From positions 1,550,001 to 1,614,000 of the forward strand of contig NC_134025.1 in the NCBI RefSeq assembly GCF_964204645.1: 64,000 nt of DNA, given 5' to 3'. Shown here one piece after another: positions 38,011 through 61,100 of the stretch. The notes under the pieces are model-generated. The model did no database searches, was not told the DNA's origin, and saw nothing but the letters and a program-made list of their open reading frames with translations. The DNA comes from Tubulanus polymorphus (taxonomy: Eukaryota; Animalia; Nemertea). The stretch's first letter is position 1; every line of letters begins with the position of its first letter. Position numbers and translations under genes: made by a program.

Positions 38011-40876
38011 ATGTCTTATCGAGATTCTGGTAAATAAATATTCTTCGATTGATTTCTCCCAACCAACAACAACTCCTTAATCTTTCAATGACGCTGAAAA
38101 AGGCGCTGATCTAACTTTCAAGTCATCTTTACTTGGCTTGGCTCATCAAAAATACATCGATCTATCCCATTTTTTATTTTATCTCATGAAGCCTAAAAAT
38201 CGGTTCTGTTTGATTAAATTAAGTAACAAGAAGGCCAACAGAACAGACAAACACAAGTTTAGGGTGAAACAATTTTGAAAAAGAAAAACTCAAACCTGAA
38301 AATGGATTTGTCATTTTTCGATATTGTTAGGTCAAAGACGCAGAAGAGACTGGCGTCAAAAAGATGATTCTCACCGCGGAGAGAAGAAGCAACAAACAAC
38401 GGCAGCGGAGGATAGCAATTCACCCGTAATACAAGCATTCATAGGATATCGCAAACAACTCGATAATAAACACGATAAATATGAGAGATTAGTGAAACTG
38501 AGTAGAGATATTACTATTGATAGTAAACGTACTATATTCTTATTACAGAGAATTACAGGGTATGTTAAAAACAATCAGAGGGTTTTATGATTTATTGATC
38601 TCTGGCGCTGCAGTTTAAGCGTCCGGTGATTGTATTTTTCAGGTTTTGAATGATCGCTCTTTGTTTCAGTAATGAACATCAGAAAGATGAAATTCTTTTG
38701 GAAGCGGCCGAAAAATTAGAACAGATTCAAAAAGAGAAATTTCAACAGATTGCCGATGAGTTGTTTTCAGAAGATGCGTATCAGTTCCTACGAGCGTATT
38801 CACCTGGTAATTAATCCATTGAGTGACATGTATTGTGGGTTCGATATTTCTTTTTCCCAATTGCAGGGGTGGATCCAGGGGCCGTTCCGAGGGTTCTGGA
38901 ATACCATAGAGCTTTGTTTGTGCCCCTCTGGAGATACCCCTTAATCCATGGATTTGGCATTGAAGTGCCCTAGTTGATTGCGTGATTTGGCGTAGTAAAT
39001 CCCCCTGAAAACCACGAGTTTGATGTTAAGGCTAAACAAAAATGATACCTTGTTTCTCCGCAGCGGCCGGGTCATTTTTGTAAAATATGATAAAATTTGT
39101 AAACAGTTCATTTCTATAGCGGCCGGGTCTGTTATGGTAAAATTGATCATGATTTTTAAAAAAGTAATGTATAGGGTAGATAGGCGGCCGGCCGGGTCAA
39201 CATTTAAGCTCAGCAGAGCGGAGAAACAAGGTATCAATTTTTTTAAGCCTAAGTGCCCTTTTTTGGCATGATTTGACATAGAAAGTGCCTCCTCCAACAG
39301 TGAGTGCCCTTATATAATTTGGAACCCCCTCAAGAAAGGGCCCTGAATTGGGTAGAGACCAAGGAAACTCTGTCGCCACCAGGATTCAAACCCATGTACC
39401 CTGCATTGACGAGACCAGTGACTGGCAGCTTCGGCCACTGCAGCTCTCAAGTAGACAGAGGTCCTCTCCGCGTATGCGCTTTACTGATGTATTAGGACCA
39501 CGGACGTATAAATTAGATCTAATCAATTGTACACATCCATGATGGGATGGAGAAGTGTTTACCCAGTGTTTGTTGATAGTCAGCCCTCTAACCCCAATGT
39601 ACACAATTCTAAGTATAACCAGTACATGCATAGGGAGGAATAGTGTAATAAATAGAATAGATTCTACAAATGCCTCACAATTTCTTATTGATATTTATTT
39701 CTAGGTTTACAGGAATATATTGAAGCGCTATCATTTTATTGGTATTGGAAACATGGTGATTTAGTAGATCTGACTGAGGTTGAAAAAGCTCTTAGATTTA
39801 ATGTTTCAAATGAAATGCAGGTAACTACTGTTCAAAAGAAAAGACTTTGTGAAATATTAACAGAAATCCCTACGCTACTGAGTTCCCTGATACTCAACTC
39901 AACTCGGTGAAATATTAACAGTCCTGACGCTTTTTGATAACTTTGATTATGGATGTTTTTCCAGAAAAAAGTGGGAGGGTAAAGGGAAAAAATGAAAATA
40001 TGTTATGCGAGTATTTTTCACATATGAAGCCTCGCAAGGACTGCAGAAAAAATTTAAAATGTTTGATGAATTTGATTTAAATGATGGGAGAAATGAAAAA
40101 ATTAACTTTTTTGCAAATCGTAAGATTGAAAATTGAGATAAACATAACTTTTACAAGTTACGAGATTGAAAATCAAGGCAAACCTATAAAAAAAATCTGT
40201 TTTTATTGGGGATCATTCATTCATTACATACGCATAAAATTTGAATTTTTAAACCCCCCCTCCCCCTCTGTACGCAAAATCGGCCATTTTTTCATATAAA
40301 TTAAGCATTACAGTACGCAATTGCACTGACCCTGACCCCCTCCCCTAATGCGTATGTAATAAATGAATGACCCCTTGAAAAATTGTGATGAAAACACAAA
40401 TTAGACCTAAAAAAATTCTTTTTTGGCCGGAGTGAAGCATGGTTGACTGTTCACTTGAATTCTATTAATTGTGAATGTTAATTATTCTGTAGGATGAAAC
40501 TGAAGAAACAGCAGCGGATGAAAGCGTGTTGAAACATGTCACTGTTCCTCCAATCGAGTATATTTTAGGAGTAGCTGATTTAACGGGTGAACTGATGCGT
40601 TGCGCAATACACAGCGTAGGTAACGGAGATCTCGATAAACCGTTTGAAATCTGCGCATTTTTACGACGTATTCACGACGCGTTTCTATCGTACGGGAATT
40701 CATCGCGTGAATTACCGCGCAAAATGTCGACGTTACGATCTAGTTTAAATAAAGTCGAACAGGCTTGTTATACCCTGCAAGTTCGCGGATCCGAGTTTCC
40801 TAAACATATGTTAATAGATCTCATCTCGAAACCCGTAGAATCGAGTGACTTTAATGATGAAGTTTATTACGATTAA
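38011..40876 (+). CDS. TSNAX: Translin-associated factor X (294 aa, 5 exons)
   Basis: Exons 38011-38029, 38331-38559, 38670-38806, 39705-39820, 40493-40876 (885 nt, in frame). Motifs [67 protein letters not shown]. Confidence 0.96.
39030..39249. mobile_element. MITE with TAA TSD (Zator- or PIF/Harbinger-type) in TRAX intron 3
   Basis: taa|ggctaaacaaaaatgataccttgtttctccgc ... gcggagaaacaaggtatcaattttttaagcc|taa. Confidence 0.75.
39373..39446 (-). mobile_element. tRNA-derived SINE head
   Basis: Minus strand: gagctgcagtggccgaag (A-box-like) ... gggtttgaatcctggtggcga (B-box-like). Confidence 0.5.
40208..40374. mobile_element. MITE in TRAX intron 4
   Basis: ggggatcattcattcattacatacgcat / atgcgtatgtaataaatgaatgacccc inverted ends. 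Confidence 0.7.
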
Positions 40877-42154
40877 AGAATTCACGAATGTTGTTTTTAA
40901 ATGTTTGCATTTATTGAACTCATTGAAATAAGCTCGATTATATTGATTATAATGAAATAAAATGTAAAAATTTTCATGAACCAAATATCGTCCTCTTATA
41001 TTGATGTTTGTTCGCAGCTTTAGATAAGAATTATTTAACGACTTCTTGCAGCCATGAGCTTTATCGACATGACTAAGCCTGATTAGTCGGTAAACACAAT
41101 TCCTTTTTTTACCATTACGATAAGCGAACATGACAGACCCCTTTAAGATACATTCAGTCCCAAACGAAGCCGTTTATTTGGGATTCGAGCATGGCTATCA
41201 CTATAGCTGGTTCGAAATCATGATTTGTACCGCCTCCAGATAGCATCCTATTTTCGCTGATTGTTTTGACCGTAAATTAACATTAAATTAGTTAATAAAA
41301 CCATCTACCTTAATTATTCCAATTCAGAAACTTACTACAAATTTATCTAACTTCATTACTGCAATAATTTATCATTCTTTAAGTTGAATAGAAAAATAAA
41401 ATTAAAATCCGCGAATCTACGGAATCTGTCAGGTGGCAGCACCGTACGGCCATGTCAATGAACCAGGAAGTAAAATGCACCTCGAACCCTTCAAGAAGCA
41501 AAAGGTTGAAAGCCTGTTTTGGTCGATGGCTAGTGACGTCATCAAGATCGCCTTTTTGTTACTCCCACAGCTAAACAACTCACTTTTAACGGTTAACCGC
41601 TGAATTTGAATTTTCTGTCAAGTGTATTCTTGCTGGCTGTTGATTAAAAGATTGTGAATCATGTTTTCCGAACGTGTTAAGCTTGTCTCCGGACCAGTTG
41701 GTGGGAATATTGGTTTGAAAAAAGAGGTAGATTGCAAGATTATAAAAAACTCACTGGGTAACACTGGTGAACGCCGCGAGGATCGTACACGGTGGTGCAG
41801 GCGAGGCGTCGCGACCGCGCGGCGGCAGGGCTTTTTAATTTTGGCTTTTGCCAGTTTTGGAGTCTTGTTATTGCCACCACGGCCACGTTACCACCACACT
41901 CACATTGTCGCTAGGCCTACTGTACTGCCACTACTTTACTTGCTTGCTACTTACTCGGCTAAATTAATTTGTCTTCATCCACGCTTACTTCCCCCCTCCC
42001 CCCCCCCCATGTTAACAAGTAATTTCTGCCAACCGAACCACCAGTCGCAGTAGCCGTAGGCAGTATACTATAGTGCAGTAGTGGGTACCCAGTGGCATGC
42101 CATTGCCATGCCACTGGGTATAGGCCTATGTTGCCCGTACACAGTCACCACCTA

Positions 42155-42702
42155 CTAATGTCTATTTATTAATTGATGAGACCTGTTTTTCTGGGATATT
42201 TTGCTTACTTTTTGGGGTACATACCTCATTTATGTCTTAACAGAATGCCAAAAATCGCGGACAACAACTGAATATCCGATATATTTCCAGTTCTGTACCA
42301 ATTAGATGGATTGGCAAAAAGACTCCTTAAGTCCAGTTGAATGAGAGAGAAAATCCTCCATTTTGTCAAGTTTCTTGGATTTGAACATTGTTACCATGCC
42401 TACGCCACCCTGATTTAGTTGTTGAGACCCCACAAGAAAAATAACTTCATTTCGTAGGCATGGTGACAATGTAAAAATTCAAGAAATTTCACAAAATGGA
42501 GGATTTTCTCTCTCATTCAATTGGACTTAAGGAGTCTTTTTGCCAATCCATCTAATTGGTACTGAACTGGAAATATATCGGATATTCAGTTGTTGTCCGC
42601 GATTTTTGGCATTCTGTTAAGACATAAATGAGGTATGTACCCCAAAAATTAAGCAAAATATCCAAGAAAAACAGGTCTCATCCATTAATAAATAGACATT
42701 AG
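42155..42702. repeat. Foldback: ~250-bp inverted arms with 48-bp spacer
   Basis: 42155-42404 is the reverse complement of 42453-42702 with only scattered mismatches. Confidence 0.93.
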
Positions 42703-43719
42703 GCCTTAAATATTCCAACAACCATTCCAAATCCAGCAACAAAAAATAAACAATAAATTTTAAGGCCTCGAAACAGAAGAATGGTAGTTCCCTGTATTCA
42801 GAGTCAATGAAAATGTATTTCTTGTTGCAGATAGATAGCCTAACCAATTTCAGGATAAGTACTTTTCATTCCTTTATTTATATACGTAGCCTAACTGTTT
42901 AATCCTGGCCCTGGCCACTGAGGGTGTATGCATTAGGTCTGGTCCCAGTTTCACTGAGCTAGTTAGCCAACAATTAAGCTGAGAAATTTTGTTAAGTGGC
43001 AATTCAGGGGCAGATCAGGAGAGTATACAGGGGTGTACACCCCTTAAAACTTTTAAGTCGCAATGAAATTTAAAGGAAAAATTAAAAATATCAACAAGTA
43101 TTTTTAAAAAGCTTATATTCCAAAACATGTTCTCTGTAGGCCTACTTCCAAAATATAGGTATTATGTTTTCTGATGATCTGGTGCCCTTTTGATTTTTAA
43201 TTATATATGATACTGATATGTATGCCCTATTTTGGGCTGCACCCCTCCCTGAATCAGTCTGCCTGCAATTAAGAGGATGTTTATAGATAATTTGATTTAG
43301 AGGAATCTTTTAATTTAGTGCCTGATGTTAGGCCTTCCACAGCCTGGTAGAGGTGGTTTAGGTGAACAAGTTAGTCTTCACACTGCAGGACTTTTAGGTG
43401 AAGGTGAAACTGGCCCTTGTTTATGCATAGGCTACTGTGTGTGCACGCTTATCTTTATGCTTATTCAATTAGAATACCCATGTAGCTACCAAATAAGCAC
43501 CGCTTCAGAGGATTTTAGAAATTTTCACTTCAATAACACTGTGTTCTATTTTTGGGCACTAGCTACTATTATGCACAATTTTTTCAATCAATTCTATCAC
43601 ATTGATATACATATATGTGTCACTTCTTTTGCATGTAGTAGGGTCTTACAGTAACCAGTGTGCTCTCTCACACCTCCCTGTGATATTGGCCTGAGACTGA
43701 CAAATAATCTTTTTTGTAG

Positions 43720-45908
43720 CGTATTGGTCTCGTAGCAGACAGCATTTTAAAGTATGCTGGGCTAGATGGTGTAGGCTTATTTGAATGGACAAGGATCGTG
43801 TGCCCCGGAGGAACCATTGAAACATTGATGGAAGGTAATTTCTCGGTTCAGTACTGATTTATATTGTTCATTTTCATTGGGTTACTGATTAGTTGTATAT
43901 TACAGAATTGAAAAAGGTGAAGATGCTGAATGTGGAACAACTAATCGTCCATGTTGGAACAAATAATATGACGCGTGATGTCCCGCTTGAGATTGTTCTG
44001 CGAAGACACGTTGAATTAATTCGATTGTTGCTCTATAAATGTACTGGGACCATCATTGTACCAGCTCTTTTTCCTCGATGTGATGAGTAAGTATCAAGAA
44101 TAGATTTTTCTTGAAGTACTATATTTATGATCGATGTAATGATTTTTAAATTTCTTTCTTTTTTAAAGTTTCGATGCTGACACAAAAATATTTCATTACA
44201 ATGAAATGCTGCACCGCGAATGCTTTACACTTGGTGTAAAGTTCGTTGATTTTCACTTCTCAAGAGATCTCCTTTCACCGTAAGTAATCGTTTAATTTTA
44301 ATAAGCCCAGTAGGTTATGTGCATTTTTTCGCGATTTAAACTAACTTGTTTTTTTCTAAATTTTGTGATCTAGGACTGACTTGTTACACCCCAGCCGTAA
44401 GGGAAATCAGTTCATAAATAACAGGATAATGGAACTACTGCTATTGAAAAATGAAGATGAAATGTACGTAGAATTGCATTATTTTATCCAATTACCAGGT
44501 ATGCAAACTACATAAATTTTATGATTGTACTGGAAATAATGAATGATTCTTAATCAGGTGCCCTCAATACTTTCCATATGAGATTGAAAAGATGCAAAGA
44601 AGTAGAGCAGTCCATCGACGAAAGGTAATCATTTAGCATTGATATCCTAGAAAATGAATGATTTGCAATTAGTTTTTATAACTTGAATACGAAACCACTT
44701 TATTCAAAATCCTTGCATTGAATTAATGAATCATATTGATAGCTGATAGCAAAAAACAAATTGAAGGATGATCAAGCAAGAGCATGGGATGATTCAACAA
44801 TAGTGGTAAAGTTGTTTTCCTAAGTGATTTGTACGTGATTTATCTTTATAAAGTTAGATATATTTTAACAGTTTTTTGTATCCTTCAATCCAGTATAGCA
44901 GTTTTGACGTTGCGCATCATACAAGGAAACAATTCTGTTGTGAAGATCAAAGAGCCTTTTTCACATTCGACCAGGTACATATCATCTCAAGAACTTATGA
45001 TTTAATATTAGTTTGGTCACTTTTATTTCACAATTACCTAAAGGCTGTGCATGCACAAATCTGTCTTTTTTTTCCAGTACATGACTAAAATTGATGTGGC
45101 TGGTGTTGCTATTTGTTTAAAGCCTCAATTATTTACTCCTTTTTATCAGACTAAGAACGTGAGTAATATGTTTCTCGAAATGAAATTATAGAAATTCATT
45201 GGTATTGGTATGATTTATGCTGTAAAGCTTTGTTTTCATATTCAGGGATGCTACAATAGAAGTTGTCACAATACTAAAAGATTTAACAGAAAAAGGAAGT
45301 CAGTGGAACATGTAAGTTTGATGCCCTTTCTGCGAGATGCGGGTTCATTTTTGTTATTTTTGCTTAGATGTTGAAGCAAAAACAGATTAATGTGCTCTTC
45401 CACATTAGGTTATTCATCCACAGACGGATCCTGCTGACTCGACATGTTTTTGCGGAGTTGAATTCACCAATTGGAAAGATCTTCTAGACCATGTTAGTTT
45501 AAACCATACTGAAATGTAAGTACAACATAATTCAATTAATTTAGTACCTACAAATCTAAATGACTTAATGCAAATGACTCAGAGATACCCATGTTTTATG
45601 TTAGGCCTATATGGGTAATTTCATACTCTATCTATTCATATGTCTAAAAAAAGTGAGTTGATAATGTGTATTTCAGGCGGACAATGGAGGAAGAAGGAAA
45701 GGACGCGGCTTGTGACAATTTCTCGGAAGGAACGATAGAGGAAGCAGAAAAGATGCAGGAAGATAGTTCGAAAGAAAGGATAGAAAGATTAAAGATGCAG
45801 GAAGATAGCTGGATGGAAAACAAAAAACAGCTAAGTATCACAGGTGGTGGAGGTATCGAACCAATCATAATTGATGATAGTGATGAGAATGATTCTGATG
45901 ATGAACAT
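43720..45908 (+). CDS. Multi-exon SGNH/GDSL-hydrolase-like domain plus zinc-finger region inside the MULE
   Basis: GT-AG exons 43720-43834, 43906-44086, 44169-44279, 44374-~44463 give RIGLVADS...CPGGT...LIVHVGTNN...ALFPR...YNEML...FVD...DLLHPSRKG (SGNH blocks I, II, III, V). Six more short exons to ~45514 (last CFC-x12-H-x4-H) and exon 45677-45908 can stay in frame. Start codon uncertain. Confidence 0.75.
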
Positions 45909-48900
45909 GTATGTGAGACTCGATACAGGCTGCTATTCTATTGATCAGATTAATAGGTTTCTTTTCTTACATTATGCTAAAACCAAACAACAAGATCTTT
46001 TTGCCATGAATCTTTGGGTAAATAGTAAGCCTTTAAGCCCCACTGATTCAGTCGATTGGGAACAGATTCAAGCATTTTCAAATATGCTCTTTTCCTTAAA
46101 ACCCTCTCAACAATTTCCAGTTGGTAATAATAATAGCGTATCTGTATCAGAACTTCAGACGATGACTAATCAAAAATGGTTTGAAGGATCTGTGTTAAAT
46201 GCTTTTGCATCTATGATAAATGAACAGTACTGTAATATTCATGCATTTATGATGCCACTTACATTTGATGCTAAGAAATATGTTTCAAATTTATATAAAA
46301 GATTCGGTCCTAATCCACTCATAAGTTGTGATAAACTAATTTTTTTCCTGCATGTTGGCACCCAAAACGATTTCGTATTTCTAAATTCTTATGGACATGT
46401 TGTTGCCAATCATTATGCACTAGCAGTTTTTTACCCAAAAAGTAACAAACTGTGTTATGCTGATACACTAGCATGGGATTGTCCAAGGGAATTTAAAAAT
46501 CATTTAAGATCTGTTTTGAAAGGTTTGAATTGCCCTGATCCTGTTTATATCCACCTCCATGATCCTCATTTTGTTACTGAAAATTCAGTGCATGTATGTA
46601 GTAATAATTGTACTAGTTATTACCCACTCCAATCATGTTCATCTGTCTGTGGCCCTGCTACATTAATTGGTGCTTGCATTGCAACCTATTATGAAAAGGA
46701 TATTTCAAGTGTATTTTCATCTCCCAATGAATTATCTTATCTTAAGAACATTTCTAACTATTCTGATTTTGTTAGATTGATATTGATTAATTGGCTTATG
46801 AAACATCTAATTGATATTACTCAACTCTTCTCAAAGTCATCTCAACCTACTGCTAATAGTACTACTTTCTCTAAGATATCACGATTATCTCGCAGACAGA
46901 GACATAAACGATCAACTGAGTCAAATAATACACTAGCTAGTTCTGAATTAAAGATGTCAGACTCTTATATTGCCCCTAAAAAAAGCAAATCAGTCTTAAC
47001 TACAGCCAAATCTAAATCTACACCAATTTTGAATAATGAATCAACACTTGAATCTACACCAATTTCGAATTATGAATCTGCAGCAATTTTGACTAATGAA
47101 TCAACACCAATTTCGAATAGTGAATCTGCACCAATTCTGACTAATGAATCAACACCTGAATCAACACCAATTTCGAATAGTGAATCTGCACCAATTTTGA
47201 CTAATGAATCTACACCAATTTCGAATAGTGAATCTGCACCAATTTTGACTATTAAATCTACACCTGAATCTACACCAATTTCGAATAATGAATCTACACC
47301 TGAATCTACATCCTCAATTTTGAATCCTCAATCCTCATTAACTCTAAATTCAGCTGAACCATTAACTTCCCATATTAATGGTTCTAAAACTACTATCTCC
47401 CATCGCATCAGGAGAGGAAAGCATTATCTTGAAGTTGCTTTTCATTCAACTGGCAGTAAGACGAAGTATAAAAGTTTTCATTGTACAGACCAAGGTACAA
47501 ATGACCAGGTAGCCATTGACACTATCAAGAAATACCTCAACAACCAGAATCCACTTAGTGATGAATGGGTTGAAAATGGGGAAGTAATGACTGGTGCTGA
47601 CACAAAATATTATTTCGATAGATTCACTTTTGATTTTACAAAAACAGTTCGTCTGCATAAGAATGTGCGGCCTTCATTTGTTGGTAACCAGACAACGATG
47701 AAAGCTTCCTTAACATTAAAAAAGAATTGGCAAACCCATAGATTAGATAATAAATTTGAATTTATTGAGCCAATTGTTGAGGATACTTCTCAATTTGTGG
47801 CTGCAGAAATGCTCATAAAATGTTCGTCAAAGTCTTCAGTTTGTAAATCATCATGTGGATATTATCTTTCAAAGTTGAATATGTCCAGTAACATCACTAA
47901 TTGTCCCTCATGTCAAATTGACGTTGTTTTAAATGATAAACAATGTATTCATTGCTCCATTACCATGTCTAACAAATGGAGGAAAAATGCTGATGGTGAA
48001 ACACTTTGTTCCAACTGTTACAACTATAAGCTGAAGAATAAACGTGATCGTCCTGTGAAGTTAAGGCAGCAGTTTGAGCCAAAAAAATTAATTCACCCTC
48101 ATTTTATGTGTTATTGGGCAACAAAACTTGTATTATTTAGTACTGATTTATCCAAGTGGAGAATCTTCAGCAAACCACTTAATGGTCAATATCATGACAA
48201 TATTCCTTTACAAATTAAAAAGCGACCTAATTTATCTACTAGAGATAGATGGGATGAAAATAGAGTCATGATGAAAGCCACAGCAATGAAGGTTCTTTCT
48301 GCCACCAATGCTCACAATAACCTTCATGTATCAAATGTAAATGATGGCGCCGGTCATGACCATACCCTAGATCAAATTTCAAATAGATTGAAATATATTG
48401 ATAAATCTTCGATAAAATTACATATGAAATCTCAAGACGAAATACCTATTCTAAGTTCTGATTGGAGAAATACTGAAAAATTATTAGAGGGTAACTATGA
48501 ATCTGTCCTTTTATTTCAACGAGGGGATGCCACACTCAAACGTAATTATCACATTATTCTCTCTGATCCTCGTTCTCTGGAACATTTATCCAACTTTGGA
48601 CAATCTGTCATTGGTATTGACGTGAAACATGATTTCAATTCGTGGAAATTCAAAACTTCATTTGTAACTTTTGCAGACAACAAAAATGAAGGACGTATTG
48701 CTGCTGCATCAATTAGTAGTGATGAAGGGGGGGCTACTCATGCAACTACCATCCAGTTAGTTCTAGCCAATACACCATGTAAAGACGAAAAATGTAATCA
48801 TCCATCTGAATTCTATATATTTAATGATGGCAATGGTTTTTTCAGAATCAAGCCATGTTCATCAACATCTAGATTTTGTCCTTTTGTACAACATGATAAA

Positions 48901-51183
48901 GATGCAAGTCTAAAGCAAGGAGCATCTGACAATAATCTTAAATCAGTACTATGTAATTTTCATGTCCTGCAGTGTATTCGTCGCTTCATGAATGAAAATC
49001 AAGAACTTCGCTTATTTTGCAAGCCTCTAGAAACTGGTTTCAAATGCATTATGAGATCATGGGATGCTTCCTCTAGAACTGATATAGCCAATTCATTTAT
49101 TAGTTTTATTGAGAATGATATTTCTTTAGACCTTATGTCGCAAGATACAAAAACATTATTTATTGATTACCTAAAGAAGAATTGGTTTAATTCCCAAATT
49201 TGGTCTGATGCATTCAATGCTGAATCAATTTATCAGTCAGACCAATCTAACAGAAATAACCCTTTGCTATTAACTGATAATATTACTGAGCGCAAATTCA
49301 AACAAATAGATGATGTCTACTTAAGTGGACACCTAAATAAACTGATATCATCTTTTGTACGATTACTGTTTGAAAATGTTTTTAATGATGAGATCAAAGC
49401 GACAAATATGAACAATCTCCAATTTAAGCAACTTGACCAACGAGTTAAGAATATACGTCACCTTGAAAAGATAGAAAAGTGTTGCAAAAGAGCCTTTGAT
49501 TTATTACAGAATAATGAGATTTTAAAATATGATGAAGAAACTAATTGGTTTGTTGTGAAGAGTTCTTCACGAAAGAACTTAAATAGGTTAGAAGATAATG
49601 ATAATTTTTTCAATGGTGATACTCAATATACATTCAATCAGCTTGATGTTTTAGAAGAAAGATTCCCCGATAAAGTATCAATATCCGAGGAACATTCATA
49701 TGACATTTCAAAAAAATGCCGAAGGTACATAGGAAATTTAGATTCAATATCCAGTCGTATCTTATTCAATTACGTTATTACAATCGTTCCTGAAAATTGT
49801 CTTTCATACGTAGATGGTAATTGCCATTTAATCAATTTGAAACTAGGTATATGTACTTGTGAAGCTTTTATAATGATTGGACAACCATATTTTTGCAAAC
49901 ATCTTTTTGCCTGTTTTGCCCAAAAAAACAATATAACCACAACGAAGGCTTTAATTGATGCATATAAATTCCACATTGTGGAGCCTCTGCCAACTTACAA
50001 TTTTACTCGACAAAATATTTCTGTTTCATCTACCCTCATTGATAAGTTAAAAGATCATTCCCACATTGCTAGCTCGAATGATATCAATGCTGCTCGGAAA
50101 GGGCACATTCTAAGTATTTTACATAATGAAAGCCACTGTGGAATTAAGTTAATAAGCGGACGACCTGCCAAACGACAACCTCACAATATGGCTCATAGGC
50201 GTGCTGAGGGTCCAATCAAGGACAATCAGGTTGCCATAAACCTTCCTGAACTTGAAGTGATAGACCCTTACTGTCCTAAGGTTACAATGCCTAAAGATGC
50301 TGAGAATGCAAGACACGGAGGGCGAAAGATAATTAGACCTGCTAACAGAGGTGTATCCTTTTCTGCTATGGTTGAAAATGCTGCTATCAAACTAGGTAAA
50401 AAAGCTAAAATATCAGAAATTGAAACCATAGACTCCACTGATCCAGATCCTGGCAATGATATCGAATTTTCAGCAGATATTTTAAGTCAGAATAAATCAT
50501 CCTTACCAAAAAAATCAAAAGATACCAAACCAAAAGATATTAAGTCAATACCAGTTGTTAAAAATGACTCGAAGTCTGTTTTATTTGAAAAAAGTATTGT
50601 CTGTTCCTTTTGTATTAAAGACAAAATAAATCCTCCATATCTTTGTTCATGTCGCAGGGAACTAGATAGGCACATATCCACTTCTCATTCATCTTTGAAA
50701 CCTATCTCATGTGCTATTTGTTGGGCAGATGGGGTTATTAATTCATATGCAAGTGAAACATTCCTTCAAAAGCACATTCGTATTGAACATAATCATCATA
50801 AGAAAAAATCTATTGTAATCGATTATAATAATAGAGATGATTATCTCAACAGTTCTCCTATTACAGAAATCAATAATTCCAATTCTGAAAAAGAATTAGA
50901 AATTCTTATAGATCAACCTGGAAATGCAGGCCTCCAAAACCTAGCAAAATTGAAACTAGATAATCTTTTGTCATCAAAAGTTGAAAAAACCCCTTCTCGG
51001 TTAGTTGCTGAAACCTGCCCTGTCTGCCACAAAAACTGCAATGCTAATCCTAAGAAAAAGTCCACATTCTCAATTGAATGTGATAATTGCCATAGATGGT
51101 ATCATTGGAAATGTGCTCCAATCAATGAGGCTCCTCCTGAACATATCAGGTGGTTTTGTTTTCATTGTGACCCGATTTCCTAA
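45871..51183 (+). CDS. MULE-family transposase with Ulp1/C48 protease, S/T-rich repeats, GATA finger, DDE core, SWIM, two C2H2-like fingers and PHD (true start probably via splicing)
   Basis: Ulp1: WFEGSVLNAF, HYALAV, YADTL, PLQSCSSVCG. GATA: CIHC-x17-CSNC...KRDRP. MULE: IGIDVKH, QHDKD, CNFH, TDNITE. SWIM: CTC...CKH. PHD: CPVC...IECDNCHRWYHWKC...WFCFHC. 1770 codons without a stop. Confidence 0.9.
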   Translation: MMIVMRMILMMNMYVRLDTGCYSIDQINRFLFLHYAKTKQQDLFAMNLWVNSKPLSPTDSVDWEQIQAFSNMLFSLKPSQQFPVGNNNSVSVSELQTMTNQKWFEGSVLNAFASMINEQYCNIHAFMMPLTFDAKKYVSNLYKRFGPNPLISCDKLIFFLHVGTQNDFVFLNSYGHVVANHYALAVFYPKSNKLCYADTLAWDCPREFKNHLRSVLKGLNCPDPVYIHLHDPHFVTENSVHVCSNNCTSYYPLQSCSSVCGPATLIGACIATYYEKDISSVFSSPNELSYLKNISNYSDFVRLILINWLMKHLIDITQLFSKSSQPTANSTTFSKISRLSRRQRHKRSTESNNTLASSELKMSDSYIAPKKSKSVLTTAKSKSTPILNNESTLESTPISNYESAAILTNESTPISNSESAPILTNESTPESTPISNSESAPILTNESTPISNSESAPILTIKSTPESTPISNNESTPESTSSILNPQSSLTLNSAEPLTSHINGSKTTISHRIRRGKHYLEVAFHSTGSKTKYKSFHCTDQGTNDQVAIDTIKKYLNNQNPLSDEWVENGEVMTGADTKYYFDRFTFDFTKTVRLHKNVRPSFVGNQTTMKASLTLKKNWQTHRLDNKFEFIEPIVEDTSQFVAAEMLIKCSSKSSVCKSSCGYYLSKLNMSSNITNCPSCQIDVVLNDKQCIHCSITMSNKWRKNADGETLCSNCYNYKLKNKRDRPVKLRQQFEPKKLIHPHFMCYWATKLVLFSTDLSKWRIFSKPLNGQYHDNIPLQIKKRPNLSTRDRWDENRVMMKATAMKVLSATNAHNNLHVSNVNDGAGHDHTLDQISNRLKYIDKSSIKLHMKSQDEIPILSSDWRNTEKLLEGNYESVLLFQRGDATLKRNYHIILSDPRSLEHLSNFGQSVIGIDVKHDFNSWKFKTSFVTFADNKNEGRIAAASISSDEGGATHATTIQLVLANTPCKDEKCNHPSEFYIFNDGNGFFRIKPCSSTSRFCPFVQHDKDASLKQGASDNNLKSVLCNFHVLQCIRRFMNENQELRLFCKPLETGFKCIMRSWDASSRTDIANSFISFIENDISLDLMSQDTKTLFIDYLKKNWFNSQIWSDAFNAESIYQSDQSNRNNPLLLTDNITERKFKQIDDVYLSGHLNKLISSFVRLLFENVFNDEIKATNMNNLQFKQLDQRVKNIRHLEKIEKCCKRAFDLLQNNEILKYDEETNWFVVKSSSRKNLNRLEDNDNFFNGDTQYTFNQLDVLEERFPDKVSISEEHSYDISKKCRRYIGNLDSISSRILFNYVITIVPENCLSYVDGNCHLINLKLGICTCEAFIMIGQPYFCKHLFACFAQKNNITTTKALIDAYKFHIVEPLPTYNFTRQNISVSSTLIDKLKDHSHIASSNDINAARKGHILSILHNESHCGIKLISGRPAKRQPHNMAHRRAEGPIKDNQVAINLPELEVIDPYCPKVTMPKDAENARHGGRKIIRPANRGVSFSAMVENAAIKLGKKAKISEIETIDSTDPDPGNDIEFSADILSQNKSSLPKKSKDTKPKDIKSIPVVKNDSKSVLFEKSIVCSFCIKDKINPPYLCSCRRELDRHISTSHSSLKPISCAICWADGVINSYASETFLQKHIRIEHNHHKKKSIVIDYNNRDDYLNSSPITEINNSNSEKELEILIDQPGNAGLQNLAKLKLDNLLSSKVEKTPSRLVAETCPVCHKNCNANPKKKSTFSIECDNCHRWYHWKCAPINEAPPEHIRWFCFHCDPIS
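47020..47320 (+). repeat. Coding tandem repeat (ESTPISNSESAPILTN-type) in the transposase linker
   Basis: Repeated gaatc(t/a)(a/g)caccaattt modules, frame preserved. Confidence 0.9.
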
Positions 51184-51959
51184 ATAGTTTGTATAGAATA
51201 TTATTGATCGGGTTTCGAATGAATCCCTGACGTTAGAAATATTTTCATTTCCCATGGTGAACGTAGAAGCCTATAATGACCGTCACTTAGTCACCTATAT
51301 ATTTACTCGATTATATATAAGGTTAAGAAGCGATGTATATGCACTGGTGTTTATAGTGCTCTATTTCAGGTTTTTTCTTTCAGGAAAATATATTTTGTGA
51401 ATAGATTACCGCTTGATTTTTTATGTTACAGGTTACTGCAAAATCATCAGTTATTGTGATGCGTGCCGATGTCTCTGGATGATTCTGACCATGTCTAGAA
51501 CTTCAACATCCTTGACTTATCATCAATTGGCAGCAGTATACATACATGCATGTTCAGAGAGTGTATGAAGAGAGTGTATGGACACATCAACCTCGGTTCA
51601 AGGCTGTCCCTGATTAAATTGTATAATCCATATATAATATATATAGATTGGTCCCATTTTAACTTACTCAACTGCTTGAATGTCTTGTTTGTTATTCGTA
51701 AATTTTCACTTATTCATTGATTGTTTCTGTAGAATTTTATATGTGATATATAAACGTGGAAACCAGGGCCCATTGCACTATGAAAGACACTTGACATTTT
51801 TTTGGGACAGATCTTTCTATATGTTTATGTCCTCGAGGCATCTGAAGTTAAGAAAATTCCCTTTGAAAACTGGAAATGACATAATGAAATAAGTTGTGGA
51901 ATGTTTACAAATGACAAAATGAATGAATTTTGCATTCCTAAGGCCCTATATATTTACTG

Positions 51960-52815
51960 CAGTTAGTCCTGTATGTCTTTTTTATCGCAATTTACTGTGG
52001 TTTATTCCTGTTTGTCCTGTATGTCTTTGTGATCGCGATCGCAATTCATTGGTTGCATTGTTTACTGTTAGTCCTGTATGTCTATCGCAATTAAGTTAGT
52101 CCTGTATGTCCTGTATGTCTTAGTTAATCGCAATTCATTGGTTGTTGAATTGTCTACTGTTAGTCCTGTATGTCCTGTGGTTTAGTCCTGTATGTCTTAG
52201 TTAATCGCAATTCGTTGGTTGAATTGTCTACTGTTAATCCTGTATGTCCTGTATGTCTATCGCAATTAAGTTAGTCCTGTATTTCTTAAATAATCGCAAT
52301 TCATTGGTTAATGAATTGTCTACTGTTAGTCCTGTATGTCCTGTGGTTTTGTCCTGTATGTCTTTGTGATCGCGATCGCAATTCATTGGTTGCATTGTTT
52401 ACTGTTAGTCCTGTATGTCTATCGCAATTAAGTTAGTCCTGTATGTCCTGTATGTCTTAGTTAATCGCAATTCATTGGTTGTTGAATTGTCTACTGTTAG
52501 TCCTGTATGTCCTGTGGTTTAGTCCTGTATGTCTTAGTTAATCGCAATTCGTTGGTTGAATTGTCTACTGTTAATCCTGTATGTCCTGTATGTCTATCGC
52601 AATTAAGTTAGTCCTGTTTGTCCTGTATGTCTTAGCTACGAGCAATTATCAAACTTGATAATTGCTCGTAGGTCTTAGTTAATCGCAATTCATTGGTTGC
52701 ATGGTTTACTGTTAAAGCTGTATGTTCTGTATCTCTATCGCAATTTCATTGGTTGCATTGTTTACTGTTAAAGCTGTATGTTCTGTATCTCTATCGCAAT
52801 TTCATTGGTTGAATT
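51960..52815. repeat. Complex minisatellite with 337-bp higher-order duplication
   Basis: Built from gtcctgtat, atcgcaatt and cattggtt modules; gatcgcgatc recurs at 52031 and 52368. Confidence 0.9.
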
Positions 52816-52968
52816 GTTAACAGTCCTCTGTATGTACATGTAAAAATAATTAAGGTTCTGACAACAGGTTTGTAAAGTAATCAGCTATCTGTTTTGTCTA
52901 TCGTTGCTTAAATTGTTAACTGTTGTTTTAGAGTTCTGTATGTCTTTGTCGATCATTTTGTCTGCACT

Positions 52969-53210
52969 CAGGGGCGGATCCAGCATTTTGAAGGGGGGGG
53001 GGGCAAATGAAAGCAACAACAGATGGCTGTAAGCCATTCCAGAGCAAGCACCGATAACGCGAAGACCCTTCCTAAAAATTTTTTGGAAAAATAGATGCAA
53101 GCAGGTGCATTCTGAGCATTACTTAATAGAAAGATTTCATTCGGTTTTTACTCAGTAACGCATAGATTTGCGGCTACATCGGTAAAAATAGAGGGGTGGA
53201 TCCGCCACTG
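52969..53210. mobile_element. MITE with CAG(G/T)GGCGGATCCA ends nested in the MULE
   Basis: caggggcggatcca / tggatccgccactg; a related degenerate copy at ~43005-43266. Confidence 0.65.
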
Positions 53211-54117
53211 AATAGCTATTGTTTTGTGTAGGATTGTATCTGTGAATTAAGTAAAGTTACTTACTCCAGTCTGATGTTATTGCTTATTGCTCGTATTTTA
53301 TTGTTTTAAGTGTGCGAATACTTTTCTTAGATTTATGGAGATCAGGATGACGAGGGTTCGATTTGAACCAACAAATAAACAAAAACATTCAAACCTCAAA
53401 TTAATCCGTTTACTTGTCTTTATTTTTGGGGAACATTTTTTTACCTAGTTCAGATTTGATAACACAGTAGTCGCTTGTTCCAAAGCGATGTGCCGTTGAA
53501 GACAGACCTGAAGGTCTTTGCCGACAGCGATGCTATCTAGGATTTCAAAGGATGTGAAGAAGGTGCATCTTCGACAACCATAGTTTGCAGTTTTAACAAT
53601 TTAAAACAATAATAGTTTCATTAAACAACTTAAAATTTAAAGATTTAGTGGACTTACTGTTTAACTAGGGCAGGGATTTCTCGCAACCGTACATGATATA
53701 TACATACACTAGCAGTAAATACAATGTACTTCTAACCCTTATAAAACTTAAACTATTATTAGTTATTTTACAATTATTAAACGGCAACGTTGAAATGCGA
53801 TGTGCGCTCAGAGCGGCCGTAGTGATTTTGGCGTATTGTGGGATTCGAACCGCTCGGAATTTGTACTAGTGACGTCACTCGCCATCGACCAAAACAGGCT
53901 TTCAACCTTTTGCACTTCAAGAACTGCAGAACTCTTCACAAAACTGTTACAAAGTGGTTTGAATGCTGTTAAAGTGGCTGATGCACGAGTAAGTATGATT
54001 TTGAGTATGTACAGTTTAGAATAGATAGTTGTCACGAGCTGTTATTAATTATTAATCAATGTGAAGTGAGAAGAGGTTGATCTCCAATTCGCGCGGGCCA
54101 ACAGGTAGTGACACAAA

Positions 54118-54174
54118 CAGTATCCTAGGTACTATATATAAAAAGACTTTTTATATATAGTACCTAGGATACTG
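54118..54174. repeat. Perfect palindrome, 28-bp arms, 1-nt spacer
   Basis: cagtatcctaggtactatatataaaaag-a-ctttttatatatagtacctaggatactg. Confidence 0.95.
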
Positions 54175-55163
54175 GGGTCAAAAACTCTTTGTGTCAGGTC
54201 CCTGTGGCGCGGGCGGCCGCAACTAACTTTGGTGTGCTCGTCCAGGAAGTGTTGTAATTATCTACTTTCTCTTTCGAATTTGTGGAAGTTTCTGCGCCGA
54301 ATCTTTTGTTTCAATTTTCCGTATATTAATATTGAATTGTATGTTTAAAAGAGCTTTTGATTAAGATAAATTGAATATTATTTAGTACTAGTGGGCACTC
54401 CAGGGTCCTAGGGATAGGAAGTGCATATATTTTGCCAATAGTATATGTTGAAGAAGTAATTTCTATAATTAGGGTTTGGATTATAGTGCGAATAAGATTG
54501 AAGCTTATATTAATTGTCACGTTTAGGGCTGGATTTATTAAGGGTATGCCTACTATTGCATCGTCAAAAAGTCCGCTCCCTAATAGAATAAATATCCTCT
54601 GAATATACATGTCTGTAGTATGATTCTAGCAGGAAGTTTTGTTTAGATAACAAATAGCCCACACACTACTGATAATTATTTTAGCTATGGTGAAAATGGC
54701 CTAAATAGAAGTCGTTTGGGAATGTTGCTTCTGAAGAAGGAAGTGTTTTTCGAACACTATTATTACTGATGATGATGGGATAAGCTAATTATACATAGTA
54801 ATAAAGGTCAAAGTCCATCCAACTCTACTATTCATCAATGATGCTTAATGTTCATTTTCAGTGAATTTTATTACATATATTTCTATACAAAAGCCATATA
54901 AGTTTAGGCATTATCTCACTGTATGTCCATTTTCATGACTGTTTTATAATGAGGCGTTGATACAGATTTCCCAGGAACCTGACTGAAAGACTGGTTGATT
55001 GTTTAGGTTAGCGGGTATTCAGATTGTTAAACTTCCTGGTTATGTTCACGCATGTCTTTCATGACATTTCTATTTTTGGTTTAAGTCGGTTATATTTTTT
55101 GTTATTTGATAGCTGAAAGTTAGCCGAATCACATTGTATCCGATAACAACAATTTTGGTACTT

Positions 55164-58100
55164 ATGAACAGAGTTCATCGTTTCAACTTATGGAAGGTAA
55201 GAATCTTGTCTTTCTAGTGTAACCTTTTTGGGGTGGAAACTTAGGAATTTAAGTTTGACTTTCAGATAGGCTGACCAACATAAAAATGCTTCCTCCAGCT
55301 CTGTCTGAATAGAATATTATTGTGACATTGTTGAGTGATGTAGTTTGGCATAGAAAATGTCACGATTCCTAATTTAATAGGCCTTTGTTCCTGGCTCTAG
55401 AAAACATATGATTTGCTTTCATTCATTAAGATTAAACATTGAAGAATGTTTCGTAATGAACATGTTTTCCCCTTGTTTTATGTATTTTATCACACATGAT
55501 GATGGTCCGATGGTCCGTCTCTAGAAATAGTCCGAAACGTCGAGTCTTGATTTTCTACGTCAAATATGGATGAATAAATTTTGTTTGTAATCATTCCAAT
55601 TTTATATAGCAGGATATGTATGGATATATGCCTTATACGGATTATATCCATTAAAAATTATTCTTTCACTGATAACTGAAGTTATTTATCACGAAGACGA
55701 AGATTTTTAAAATCGGTCATTAGTGTTTTCTTGTCAAATTTTATTGCGTGTGCTATTGATAAATCAGTTCATACTCTGATTCACACAAATACCGTATTTG
55801 AATGTGTCAGACGGTTTGATAAGTGAAAATATTTCGCCCTTAGTCTTAGATCTGGAATTTCCCATATATTATGTATTGTGACATTTTCTTTCAGAAACCA
55901 GTTTTAGCTGTTTATTCAGCCAACACTCGACGTATTCGTATACAGAACCATTATTCACAATGATGCCATTTTTTGCCTCGTCATATTTTCCTATGAAACA
56001 CATATAATTGACCATTATTTCAGCCATTATTCTTTCATGATCAGTTTCTCATGCATGAATTGCCCTCGGTACTTTTATGCTTCACCGCCAATGTCGCATC
56101 TTTTCATTCTGTAAATACTTCTAAAAAGAAAATATCATGATTTTTATTAATTTTCATTATGAAATTGATTGATTTTTTGTGAATATTTTAGATTGTTCTG
56201 CTGCTACAAGTGGTACATGGAGCAGCAAACAATCTCTCAGGTAATTATGAATCTTAACATTACAATTCTAGATTATCAAACTGTTTATGAACTACACTAG
56301 AATGAACATAAAATATTTCTCTGAGACTATTGTTGCCTGGTTGGTACTTCTTACTTTTTCAGTTTCTTCCTCAATAAACGCAACTACTACTGTTCAGATT
56401 ACTGTACCAACAAACACAACTGATGCAACTGCTACTGAACCAACTGATGCAACTGCTACTGAACCAACTGATGCAACTGCTACTGAACCAACTGATACTG
56501 CTACTGAACCAACCAATGCAACTGCTACTGAACCAACCAATGCAACTGCTACTGAACCAACTGATGTAACTGCTACTGAACCAACTGATGCAACTGCTAC
56601 TGAACCAACTGATACTGCTACTGAACCAACCAATGCAACTGCTACTGAACCAACCAACGCTACAACTGTCCTACCAAAACTAGGAGAGAATTGTACTCAA
56701 ACATGTGGTTCACATAGCAGTGGTTGTGAACAGGGTGTTTGTAAATGTCTTAAAGACTTCTATGAATCAACAGCTGGCTGTGTTTCAAGTATGCATTACA
56801 TTTATTACAAGGATTTCACTGAGTTCTGAAAAATTCCTCATCAGTAATAGTGCTATACATGTATATATTGTGATAGGTTACTCTATGCTGCTGGTGGTTG
56901 CTGTTATAAACAATGATTGACCAATTAGTGACATTTATATATAATAATTGCTCTATTAAACATATCATTAATGATTTTTATCACTTATCACTGAACCAAA
57001 ACAATGATCAATTACCTAGAACTATTAATAAAAACTGCCAGAGAATGATGTAATATATGCATCGTTTCTTTAATTCTTTTCTATATTTTAAAGAACCCAA
57101 ATGAATCTTTATTTACAGACAAAAATTTATCACCGCAAAATGTGACCATTAAAGATATCGGATTGACGAGTGTAAACATAACATGGAATCTTGCAACTGA
57201 GATTAATACCTCGTATATAATCAAATGGGGAGATCTGAATAGAACAGTGACTGACACCTCATTCACTGTACCAGATTTAAAACCTGGATCCATCTACAAT
57301 ATTTCCGTCTATGGAGAATATAATGGTGCTGTTGTTCAGGCATTCACAGAGTTAGTCAGAACATGTAGGTATTGGGTAAAGTATAGATGTATTTTATCAT
57401 AGTTGAGAGCATAGAACTGGCATGAATATGATTTTCATGATCAACATGACAGAAAACTTGCTACAGCAGCTTTAAATCTAAATAATGTGTATAAACTTGA
57501 AGATTTATTTTTGTTTACAGTACTTGAACCACCAAGTAATATTCAGATTGTCAGTGTAACGACTGGTGAAGTGAATGTGAACTGGTCTTCGGTGGCGAAT
57601 GTAACAAAATACAATGTGACCTGCTTGAAATTGACAGAAAATGGGAGCACTGCTGTTTCTTCGGAAATAATTGAAACGACAAATGCAACGTGTTCCGAAT
57701 TGGATCCTGGAATGCTGTTTGAAATAACTGTGATGTCAATTAAGGAGAATTTCAAACCATCACAACTATCATCAATCAAAGGAATAACGAGTTAGTACAT
57801 GTATATACAGCGCGCTACTCGGTGAAACACTATTTCTCCCATTAAACAACAATATTTGTATATTTCAGATCCGATGAAACCATCACACTTCTCGGCATCC
57901 GTTCTCAATTCTAACAGTACTAATGCCATACAGTTAAATTGGACTTATGCTGACAACTCTGGTCATACCGGTTTCAAATTACTACAAACACCAGCTGAAG
58001 GATCCCTTAATGACAGCTTACAGTCAAACGACAGATCTAAGACACAGTTTGTGGCAACTGGTTTGGTTCCTGGTAGATCGTATAGATTTACAATAAAGCT

Positions 58101-61100
58101 GATATCAAGCCGAGATATATACACTAGTAACAGTGAACCTGTCAGCGATAATGCAACCACATGTAGGTTCAACGCTTCAAGTTGTATTTTGTGTAATATT
58201 GACCTGCGTAGTTTATTGTATAAACTGTTCATTAAAAACTGAACCTTCAGATTGATATATTATTAAGTATATTTTATTTCAGATCCCGCTCCTGTTTCAA
58301 ATTTGACTCGATTACATTTATCTGCATATGAAATTCAATTGCGTTGGATACAGTCTGGTGAATTAGATGGTTACGATATCACATTATCCCCTCCTAATAC
58401 AAAGCCACCCAAACCTGTGAGGAATCCAAGAGATGACTCCACTTATGAAATGAATATTACATCTCTTAGTCCGTATAAAGACTATACACTGAGTTTTGTT
58501 ACAAATCGTCATCAACTAAATAGCTCTGTGGTTCTGTATGAATTCAAGACTAGTGAAGCAGGTTAGGAAATGTGCGGATTGTTTGGGATTTTTTTGTTAG
58601 TGATAGGATTTTTATTTATAATTTTTCTGTTTTTCAGAACCATCTGAAGTCAAGGATTTTAATGTCAACACATACAATGATACAAGTCTTATATTAATAT
58701 GGCGTGAACCCGATCCAGCTAATGGCCTGATTACAGATTACACCATCAGTTACTGGCCTATAAGTAATCCAGCAGGAAAAAAAAGTAAAACAGTTGATGG
58801 TGGAGAATTCAATACTACGATAATCGGATTGATAGCATTCATGGAATATAGTGTTTCTATTGTGGCAAACACATCTGCTGGATCTGGTCCTCCTGTTTAT
58901 CAAAACATTACCACTTCTGAAGCAGGTAATAGATTATAGCACTGAAATTCAACCACTATGTTTTCAGTAATTTGCACCTTGAAGTTCTGTGATAATCTCT
59001 TTCAGTTCCTGGTCCGCCGACAAATTTTACGGTTCTAGTAATGGGAGCACGGCAAATCAGTGTTAGTTGGGCAAAACCTGAAAAACGTAATGGACAGATC
59101 ACAAATTATACCATTCAGTATAACTCAACTGTTGGGAGTGTCAATACATCGTATCATACAAAGTTAGAAGATTTGAATAAAGTGATTGAAAACCTCAAAC
59201 CGTGCACTGTTTATTCATTGCGTATTGCTGCTTCGACGTCAGTCGGTCGTGGTGATTTTACAGAATGGAAGAATGAAACAACACAAGTCAATTCAGGTAA
59301 CTTTGAATTTACAGGATAGATTTATAGAATTTTTTCTCAAATTGAAAAACTAACAAATTTATTTTATTGATTACAGATCCTAAGCCGGTTGAGGACTTGG
59401 AACCCAGTATAGGCAGCAAAGAGAATTGTATAAATGTGACTTGGAGACGCCCCTCTGAAGAGTACTGCAATTTAACATATTCAGTCACAATTCATAATGC
59501 CCGTCAAGATAAATTGCCAAAATTGCCGTCACCAGTTACTGTTACCGGTATGTATGGACTGAATATGTTTGTGTTTGTGAATGCATGAAGTGTTTCAGGT
59601 AAAAAATGATATAATGGGTAAATATATATTTTGTACAGATGAGTGGTATGAATTCTGTGACCTCTATTATTACTGGGATTATAAGGTTGCTGTCATTGTG
59701 AAAACAACTAAAGGAAGCAGTGAGAATCGAAGATCAAACGTGATTCGAACTGGTGAAACTGGTAAGTAAGGAAGGCTGCTGGGTACATGTAATTACTCAA
59801 TTAACACAACTTGATATCATATACTTCTTCTGAACCTTACTATCAACATTCATCAAAACAAGATTTTTTTGGGAATATTCTTTTTGAGAGCCACCATATT
59901 TCTCTTATTTTTCAGCACCATCTGAAGTCAGAGAGTTTAATGTTACAACGATCACTGCTTCAAGTTTTGAATTGACATGGCTTGAACCCGATCCAGCTAA
60001 TGGCGTGATTACAAATTACACCATCAGTTACTGGCCTATAAGTAATTCAATGGACAGAAAAACTAAAACAATAAGTGGTAGAATATTGACTTTTGAAATT
60101 AGTGGATTGAAAGCATTCACGGAATATAATGTTTCTATTGTGGCAAACACATCTGCTGGATCTGGTCCTCCTGTTTATCAAAACTCCCTCACTTCTGAAG
60201 CAGGTACATATGTACATACCGTAATGTATTGGTGCAAATATCTGTTATTGTCAGTTAATTTGTGAATTGTTAATTCTTCGAATAATATCAAACAACATAG
60301 AATCAGAATAGATAAACTTAAGCAAAATATTCTTAAAGTTTTGTACATCACGTGAACCTTACTGTTAACATTCATCAAAATGAGATTGTTTGGGAATATT
60401 GTTTTTGAGAGCCACCATATTTCTCTTTGTTTTACAGCACCAACTAAAGTCAGAGGGTTTGATGTTACAAAAATCGCTGCTTCAAGTTTTGAATTGACAT
60501 GGCTTGAACCCGATCCAGCTAATGGCTTGATTACAAATTACACCATCAGTTACTGGCCTATAAGTAATTCAATGGAGAGAAAAACTAAAACAATAAGTGG
60601 TAGAATATTGACTTTTGAAATTAGTGGATTGAAAGCATTCACGGAATATAATGTTTCTATTGTGGCAAACACATCTGCTGGATCTGGTCCTCCTGTTTAT
60701 CAAAACATTACCACTTCTGAAGCAGGTAATAGATTATAGCACTGAAATTCAACCACTATGTTTTCAGTAATTTGCACCTTGAGGTTCTGTTATAATCTGT
60801 TTCAGTTCCTGGTCCGCCGACGAGTTTTACGGTTCTAGTTACGGGAGCACGACAAATGAATGTTAGTTGGGCAAAGCCTGAAACACCTAACGGAAAGATT
60901 ATGAATTATACCATTGAATATAGTTCAACTGTTGGGAGTATCAATACATCGTATCATACAATGTTAGAAGATTTGAATAAAGTGATTGAAAACCTCAAAC
61001 CGTGCACTGTTTATTCATTGCGTATTGCTGCTTCCACGTCAGTCGGTCGTGGTGATTTTACAGAATGGAAGAATGAAACAACACAAGTCAATTCAGGTAA

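Follow-up and report, generated by a model that had tools for sequence, protein, structure and literature searches.

The subject of this account is a DNA transposon of the ribbon worm Tubulanus polymorphus, lying at 41498-53913 of a stretch of 64,000 nucleotides (contig NC_134025.1, positions 1,550,001 to 1,614,000 of the forward strand), which we call the window and to which all coordinates below refer. It belongs to a real, recently spread Mutator family. The reading that we hold to be probable is that the window contains a recent copy whose frame is broken, that intact copies are predicted to make a transposase of ~2200 residues, and that a protease within this transposase likely strips SUMO at the element's own DNA. 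The ends of the element are as follows.

41489..41497 (+): left copy of the target-site duplication (TSD), 9 bp, directly adjoining the left terminal inverted repeat (TIR)
41498..41541 (+): left TIR, 44 bp, from inverted-repeat comparison
53870..53913 (-): right TIR, 44 bp, from inverted-repeat comparison
53915..53923 (+): right copy of the TSD, 9 bp, one base (53914) past the right TIR

The TIR arms are complementary at 43 of 44 bases, and a 28-base TIR pattern is found at two places only in the window, these being the two TIRs, against none in 100 shuffles; the near-perfect 44-bp repeats of the preliminary description are thus upheld, with no third place in the window. The 9-bp duplication described at the same time stands in part. 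It is flush with the left TIR, but on the right it is separated from the TIR by base 53914, and it can be read either as 9 bp with one extra right-hand base or, if a mismatch is allowed, as 10 bp. The 9-bp sequence occurs three times in total on both strands of the window, and is so rare there that its placement at the element ends is not due to chance. The window element accordingly has the TIRs and, in this copy, the 8-11-bp TSD of a Mutator element. It can be added that the inner ends of both TIRs (41534-41541 and 53870-53877) consist of the same 8-bp palindrome, present four times in the window, which we take to resemble a CREB site.

Between these ends lies a long coding region, made up as follows.

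45677..45914 (+): beginning of the final, large coding exon, and gap point; splice donor after 45908, gap at 45911-45914
45871..51183 (+): stop-free frame of 1770 codons; past the gap it is the same as RefSeq XP_074661727.1 throughout
45913..46830 (+): cysteine protease of the Ulp1/SENP fold, with active-site residues His 46411, Asp 46462, Gln 46630, Cys 46648
47015..47300 (+): in-frame Ser/Thr/Pro-rich tandem repeat (linker), from tandem-repeat detection
47797..48207 (+): likely DNA-binding region, with beta strands flanking a Cys-rich insert
47944-48018 (+): GATA-type finger inside this Cys-rich insert, from profile and model
48400..49400 (+): Mutator DDE core; Asp 48619, Asp 48895, CxxH 48952-48963, Glu 49288
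48778-48858 (+): family-specific Cys/His insert in the core, from alignment and model
49852..49902 (+): SWIM zinc finger, from alignment; Pfam SWIM matches in relatives
50602..50790 (+): two C2H2-like fingers, by eye; same Cys/His pattern in several relatives
51016..51168 (+): PHD finger; Pfam E=3.2e-5, at the cut-off; TAF3 PHD, E=8e-7
51432..51482 (+): downstream exon; splice 45908>51432 skips the whole transposase

The predicted structure of 45913-46830 (predicted local distance difference test, pLDDT, 79.6) matches SENP1 (Z 18.6), Ulp1 (Z 18.4, root-mean-square deviation (rmsd) 2.7 over ~204 aligned residues) and NEDP1 (Z 15.9), another fold search ranks these families alike, and an Ulp1 profile matches the protease at E=1.5e-7. 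The fold is that of clan CE, with a His-Asp-Cys triad and an oxyanion Gln, the coordinates of which were converted by hand from the alignment. In the family alignment, which holds 27 sequences, all four residues are kept in 16 of the 20 sequences that span the protease, at an overall identity of 24-34% between families. The four exceptions are crab proteins, which are also without the second Asp and the CxxH of the transposase. An intact transposase goes with a conserved protease and a dead one with its loss, so that the protease is likely of use to the element. Judged from the model, SUMO would be its likeliest substrate. In one relative (P0013) the protease variant is duplicated.

The model of the core (pLDDT 77.0) has as its best match the IS256 transposase ISCth4 (Z 11.8, rmsd 7.0, 249 residues aligned), followed by Hermes (Z 8.8), and a second fold search gives the same ranking. 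The three acidic residues are placed on the strands and helix where they would be expected, the CxxH follows the second Asp after a spacer of 21 residues, and a helical insert precedes the Glu, as in transposases of the RNase H-fold DDE type; Asp, Asp, CxxH and Glu are all kept in 20 of the 25 sequences spanning the core. The core model also matches GATA-1 over 51 residues (Z 7.7, rmsd 2.8). The finger concerned has the form CX2C-X17-CX2C with a basic tail, and its four cysteines are kept in all but one of the 23 sequences that span it; the family profile matches GATA-3 at E=1.7e-12, and the single-sequence Pfam match is below cut-off. The surrounding region (47797-48207) is likely, on the model, to bind DNA. 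It may be a WRKY-GCM1 domain, to judge from a fitting strand pattern and Cys/His arrangement and a weak Atlas lead (0.76, GCM being found on 12% of its members); GCM, WRKY and FLYWCH structures are absent from the fold and profile matches listed, which does not exclude the fold. WRKY-GCM1 domains of Mutator-like elements (MULEs) take inserts at a position matching that of the GATA finger here (PMC1702500). A Pfam scan of the window protein detected neither the protease nor the MULE core, and in the relatives Pfam MULE gives sub-threshold matches. This suggests that such elements enter annotations as host genes labelled 'GATA-type' or 'PHD-type'. The preliminary description had named the Ulp1 protease, the GATA finger, a MULE core and the PHD finger, in that order; the fold matches, active-site residues and profiles given above bear out each of these domains and the order of the whole protein.

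Copies, the broken frame and the upstream exons

The core was searched against 1.84 billion sequence representatives, giving 127 matches at E<=0.001, of which 17 reach E<=1e-30. The best is a 100% identical RefSeq model from Tubulanus polymorphus itself, whose cluster comprises 11 proteins encoded at 10 loci; these loci are spread over several contigs. Three of the 10 loci encode proteins of 2196 residues that differ at 3 positions and are 99.9% alike; one of the three, located on a contig of 244 kb, may represent a haplotype duplicate. Raw reads of one sequencing run (X5) were mapped on window 40600-51900, and contigs were taken from two assembled runs (X1 and X2); the three runs mapped behave as DNA. 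The X5 depth is ~7.4 in the flank, ~28-46 over protease and core and ~72-77 in the arms, from which hand arithmetic gives roughly 4-6 copies of protease and core and ~10 of the arms. At 41498, 211 X5 reads leave the element into unrelated flanks (consensus agreement 0.37), and derivatives with internal deletions appear in the reads as joints 44473>49606 and 46056>46862. Multiple dispersed copies, as in a Mutator family, are therefore seen both as RefSeq loci and as read flanks, and the young, mobile, multi-copy family that had been proposed is supported by the diverse flanks at the TIR end, the ~4-10 copies and the near-identical proteins. An X1 contig tracks the left flank precisely as far as 41497, and its next 224 letters lie off the element, which suggests an empty insertion site, such as the preliminary description had advised looking for. 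In 19 of 48 X5 reads there is a one-base loss at 48726-48727, in agreement with RefSeq model P0136, which is truncated near residue 1380; it marks another common defective lineage.

The window copy had been called intact, with an uninterrupted 1770-codon frame, and its family possibly autonomous. The frame is indeed open throughout 45871-51183, but the window is without 230 bp at 45911-45914, a point with 4-bp microhomology, and this gap shifts the frame ahead of the long open reading frame, which is still open because the gap falls just before it. The ~76 residues missing from the window are present in all eight cluster proteins that reach the long frame (out of 11 in the cluster), and one contig from each of X1 and X2, thus both runs, has 230 extra bases between the aligned sides of 45911-45914. 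Eleven GT-AG exons from 43828 rebuild the RefSeq N-terminus, and in the window the frame so spliced stops after 373 amino acids. This copy is therefore not supported as intact or autonomous, as an unbroken frame from start to transposase is absent from it. The splice 45908>51432 yields exactly the RefSeq model P0135, of 378 amino acids, which may derive from the window locus. There are in-frame acceptors downstream of the gap, of which the nearest implies an intron of 40 bases, the other introns having 71-161, and it is possible that one of them could rescue the frame. The likely product of the window copy is a short SGNH-zinc-finger protein alone, and the copy would move only with enzyme from intact copies. 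The exons of this short protein are the following.

43720..44463 (+): SGNH hydrolase domain, spliced; the DNA encodes blocks I, II, III and V, with the Ser codon at 43741
44558..45515 (+): series of six short coding exons, ending in one with a C2H2-like finger (by eye), from RefSeq models

The Ser, Gly, Asn and Asp-x-x-His blocks of an SGNH hydrolase are all encoded in the window DNA. The commonest RefSeq model starts at 43828, past the Ser, so that the Ser exon is outside it; models P0131 and P0137 include the Ser. On the sister protein P0131 Pfam Lipase_GDSL_2 scores above its cut-off (E=1.4e-9). The upstream spliced SGNH region seen earlier is supported by this match and by the 11 exons. 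A search for longer SGNH-bearing proteins turned up no such protein in 328 candidates, which is weak evidence.

Relatives in other animals and comparison with known transposons

Full-length relatives are found in the limpet Patella caerulea, the mantis shrimp Oratosquilla and the crabs Scylla and Portunus, and partial ones in Priapulus and the sea spider Nymphon. They have in common an N-terminal Ulp1/SENP-fold protease, the GATA-type finger and the Cys-rich insert in the catalytic core. Patella caerulea has eight full-length loci in two subfamilies, with 87% identity between and 93-99.9% within them. The Oratosquilla protein is without the second Asp of the transposase. Four portunid proteins of the crab type (P0014, P0144, P0146 and P0147), 88-100% identical to one another, lack the protease Cys and Gln as well as the transposase second Asp and CxxH, and retain intact GATA and SWIM fingers, which suggests from their sequences a candidate domesticated host gene. 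More distant relatives, some of them from glomeromycete fungi, carry the Cys insert in the core; two distant metagenome loci have 26% identity, one of which (L001) has no open reading frame of at least 150 amino acids. No relative was found among 80 candidate viral contigs.

A tree of 26 core rows was built from search hits, near-duplicates and the partial cores P0011, P0012, P0025 and P0045 being left out. Fourteen rows, including all the named animal sequences in the tree, group at 95/93. A wider group of 16 rows does not form one clade in this tree. The core phylogeny proposed in the preliminary description is in this form one of search hits.

The nearest known systems are MULEs of the insert-containing WRKY-GCM1 type (PMC6446971, PMC1702500), with which the window element shares TIRs, a 9-bp duplication, a DDE core with CxxH and a SWIM finger. 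C2H2 fingers and a C-terminal PHD finger have also been described in some sea-urchin, Ciona and nematode members (PMC1702500). The GATA-type finger and the protease at the front set it apart, as do its length, ~2200 amino acids against 313-1136 among 322 arthropod MULE types, and its Asp1-Asp2 spacing, 91 against 60-84 in arthropod MULEs (PMC6446971); the wide spacing is due to the Cys/His insert. Ulp1 is itself known in Mutators of plants, hydra and lancelet, and Ulp1 together with PHD in Ginger1 (PMC2836005). The Ulp1-bearing MULEs (Kaonashi/VANC of Arabidopsis and the hydra and lancelet MuDR elements) and Ginger1 thus resemble our element in having an Ulp1-fold protease in a DNA transposon, and some of them in having a PHD finger. 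However, the protease is C-terminal in Ginger1 and a separate gene in Kaonashi (PMC2836005, PMC13317346), whereas here it lies ahead of the DNA-binding region and is too divergent for Pfam.

Rehavkus elements have 9-bp TSDs, TIRs of 26-400 bp, a PHD finger, a 3' minisatellite and a length of 5-18 kb (PMC6446971), and our element is like them in size, duplication, PHD finger and a minisatellite before the 3' TIR. In contrast, all six Rehavkus cores inspected by eye have a much longer spacer from the second Asp to C/DxxH and another Glu motif (PMC13359780), and neither a GATA finger nor a front protease is mentioned in the descriptions of Rehavkus compared. Membership of Rehavkus was rejected by eye on core spacing and Glu motif; membership of Ghost was likewise rejected by eye, two Ghost references being without the Cys insert (PMC13359780). 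Four short family motifs have no match in the supplement to PMC13359780, where alignment gaps could hide them.

A different comparison is offered by P0148, a transposase of the KDZ/Zisupton type from an ENA record that has the same front-protease variant (26% identity over 295 amino acids, E=3e-31), a C-terminal PHD finger and a Pfam CxC4 match above cut-off, while its transposase core has no significant match to the Mutator core here. The same protease on unrelated cores implies that the protease module has likely moved between superfamilies. The P0148 cluster has nine members, three of them full-length, and by eye there appears to be a second protease domain near the end. SGNH domains are known in CR1 retrotransposons and Helitron-borne texim genes (PMC4021074) and in giant retroelements (PMC6431247). 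In CR1 and Helitrons as here the four catalytic blocks lie within a transposon; here the transposon is a Mutator and the domain is modelled as the transposase N-terminus. In the literature searched we find no MULE described as having an Ulp1 at its front or a GATA finger; Repbase, Dfam and the FASTA supplements of PMC6446971 may contain a member of the clade. The claim of an unrecognized architecture can thus be retained for the order of domains, the GATA finger and the clade, and not for Ulp1, PHD or SGNH, each already known in transposons. The layout is distinctive, apparently undescribed in that literature (Repbase and Dfam not covered) and spread over several phyla, and the element is a Mutator with additions of known types rather than a new kind of system.

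Possible functions and rival explanations

By analogy with known Mutator biology, the GATA-containing region would bind the TIRs, the DDE core would excise the element and join it to a staggered cut in the target, and gap repair at that cut would create the target duplication. Whether the protease acts, as the model would have it, on SUMO rather than on NEDD8 or ubiquitin, and so might relieve SUMO-dependent silencing or keep the transposase active, we regard as evenly balanced. Piwi silencing in Drosophila requires SUMOylation (bioRxiv 2021.07.27.453956), and plant Mutators with Ulp1-bearing VANC genes escape silencing (PMC13317346). The PHD finger could, though this is doubtful, steer insertion or binding to gene-proximal chromatin. 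Chromatin reading and the countering of SUMO silencing, both suggested in the preliminary description, are plausible as proposals. A more far-reaching scheme is speculative and rather improbable: the family might be a self-desilencing Mutator clade in at least five animal phyla, in which GATA and PHD fingers would bring the SUMO protease to the element's own chromatin as an animal counterpart of plant VANC anti-silencing, with the module traded with KDZ, a splice switch to a short regulator, and the protein domesticated in portunid crabs into a GATA-finger host gene.

Several points weigh against the removal of SUMO by a fusion transposase at the element's own DNA. The role of transposon Ulp1 is stated as unknown even in plants (PMC13317346), and the fold leaves the substrate open, as NEDP1 and bacterial deubiquitinases share it. 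The 230-bp gap is seen in the letters of the window against sister proteins and contigs, and the 2196-residue fusion is a prediction of RefSeq gene models. The TIRs described are those of the ribbon-worm element, the relatives being represented by their proteins, and SGNH was found in none of the relatives scanned outside the ribbon worm. The PHD finger was undetected in six long relatives (P0004, P0006, P0008, P0013, P0014 and P0151), and here it keeps the Trp and has Ser in place of the Met of the TAF3 pocket. Presumably both residues contribute to the TAF3 pocket for histone H3 trimethylated at lysine 4, part of which would, with the Met replaced, be missing.

The main rival to relief of silencing is that the protease serves transposition itself, by processing a polyprotein or by freeing the transposase, or repair factors at the cut, of SUMO, ubiquitin or NEDD8. 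We judge this the less probable course. It is favored by the crab relatives, which have lost protease and transposase residues together and so tie the protease to transposition, by the low-complexity linker between protease and core, and by earlier proposals of repair and polyprotein roles (PMC2836005, PMC1702500); yet the nearest folds are SUMO proteases and not self-cleaving ones, and joint loss in crabs would equally follow if a domesticated gene has no use for relief from silencing. A further question is whether the transposase begins near the protease, the SGNH-zinc-finger exons being a captured passenger gene for a short protein and the fusion an artefact of modelling or read-through. 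This has a substantial minority chance. The limpet and mantis-shrimp models begin ~50 residues before the protease domain, a short spliced RefSeq form skips the transposase, the nearest Atlas clusters to the SGNH domain are stand-alone SGNH proteins of 150-200 amino acids, and the commonest RefSeq model leaves out the catalytic Ser. On the other side, the models at seven of the 10 ribbon-worm loci run in frame from upstream exons into the long exon, and in other species short exons upstream may have escaped gene prediction.

Two further alternatives concern identity rather than function. That the family is already in Repbase or Dfam, as MuDR or Rehavkus, and that only the annotation is new, seems unlikely to us: Rehavkus was described with matching TSD, PHD finger, 3' minisatellite and length (PMC6446971), and animal MuDR families with Ulp1 exist in Repbase Reports (PMC2836005), but the Rehavkus cores differ in spacer and Glu motif and the Ghost references are without the Cys insert (PMC13359780). 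A domesticated host gene, or a segmental duplication with a relic likeness to TIRs and TSD, is very improbable indeed. Although the crab relatives look domesticated, the diverse flanks at the exact TIR end, the near-identical copies at 10 loci and the deletion derivatives contradict such a reading, and with it the single fixed gene that the preliminary description had set against its own proposal. The family is a good system in which to test why DNA transposons so often carry SUMO-type proteases, having young intact copies in the ribbon worm and probably the limpet, an active site kept across phyla, and crab derivatives in which both enzymes are dead.

Nested repeats and surroundings of the element

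Two repeat features lie within the element.

42156..42701 (no strand assigned): nested foldback, a miniature inverted-repeat transposable element (MITE) with 250-bp arms; by eye ~542 bp between two 2-bp duplications
about 51953..52818 (no strand assigned): minisatellite before the right end, with periods of 56, 74, 166 and 337

The foldback and the satellite had both been listed with the element's contents. The satellite is confirmed; the foldback is present at about 42155-42702, but it is not payload. Its depth in run X5 is ~150 times that of the flank, hundreds of reads carry it with unrelated flanks, and 42 reads skip it at joint 42155>42700, as does an X2 contig, although some of the skips may be hairpin artefacts. 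It is a separate high-copy MITE family nested in the Mutator element.

A coding exon of the translin family (40493-40873, +; Pfam E=8e-27) ends ~0.6 kb before the left TIR, so that the element may sit inside or just behind the 3' untranslated region of that gene. Mutator elements prefer insertion at genes, and the position is in line with this, though a single site says little. About 170 bp past the right end there is a hairpin with a perfect 57-bp palindrome (54090-54215), possibly a small MITE. The exons at 56272-58239 (+) contain a 24-bp repeat rich in Thr, Ala and Glu, together with a weak EB module and two fibronectin type III domains, and likely belong to a gene for a cell-surface protein. 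Finally, at 58621-61631 and 33355-34434 there are direct repeats of 1.2 kb, 92% identical, as well as a 243-bp tandem array.

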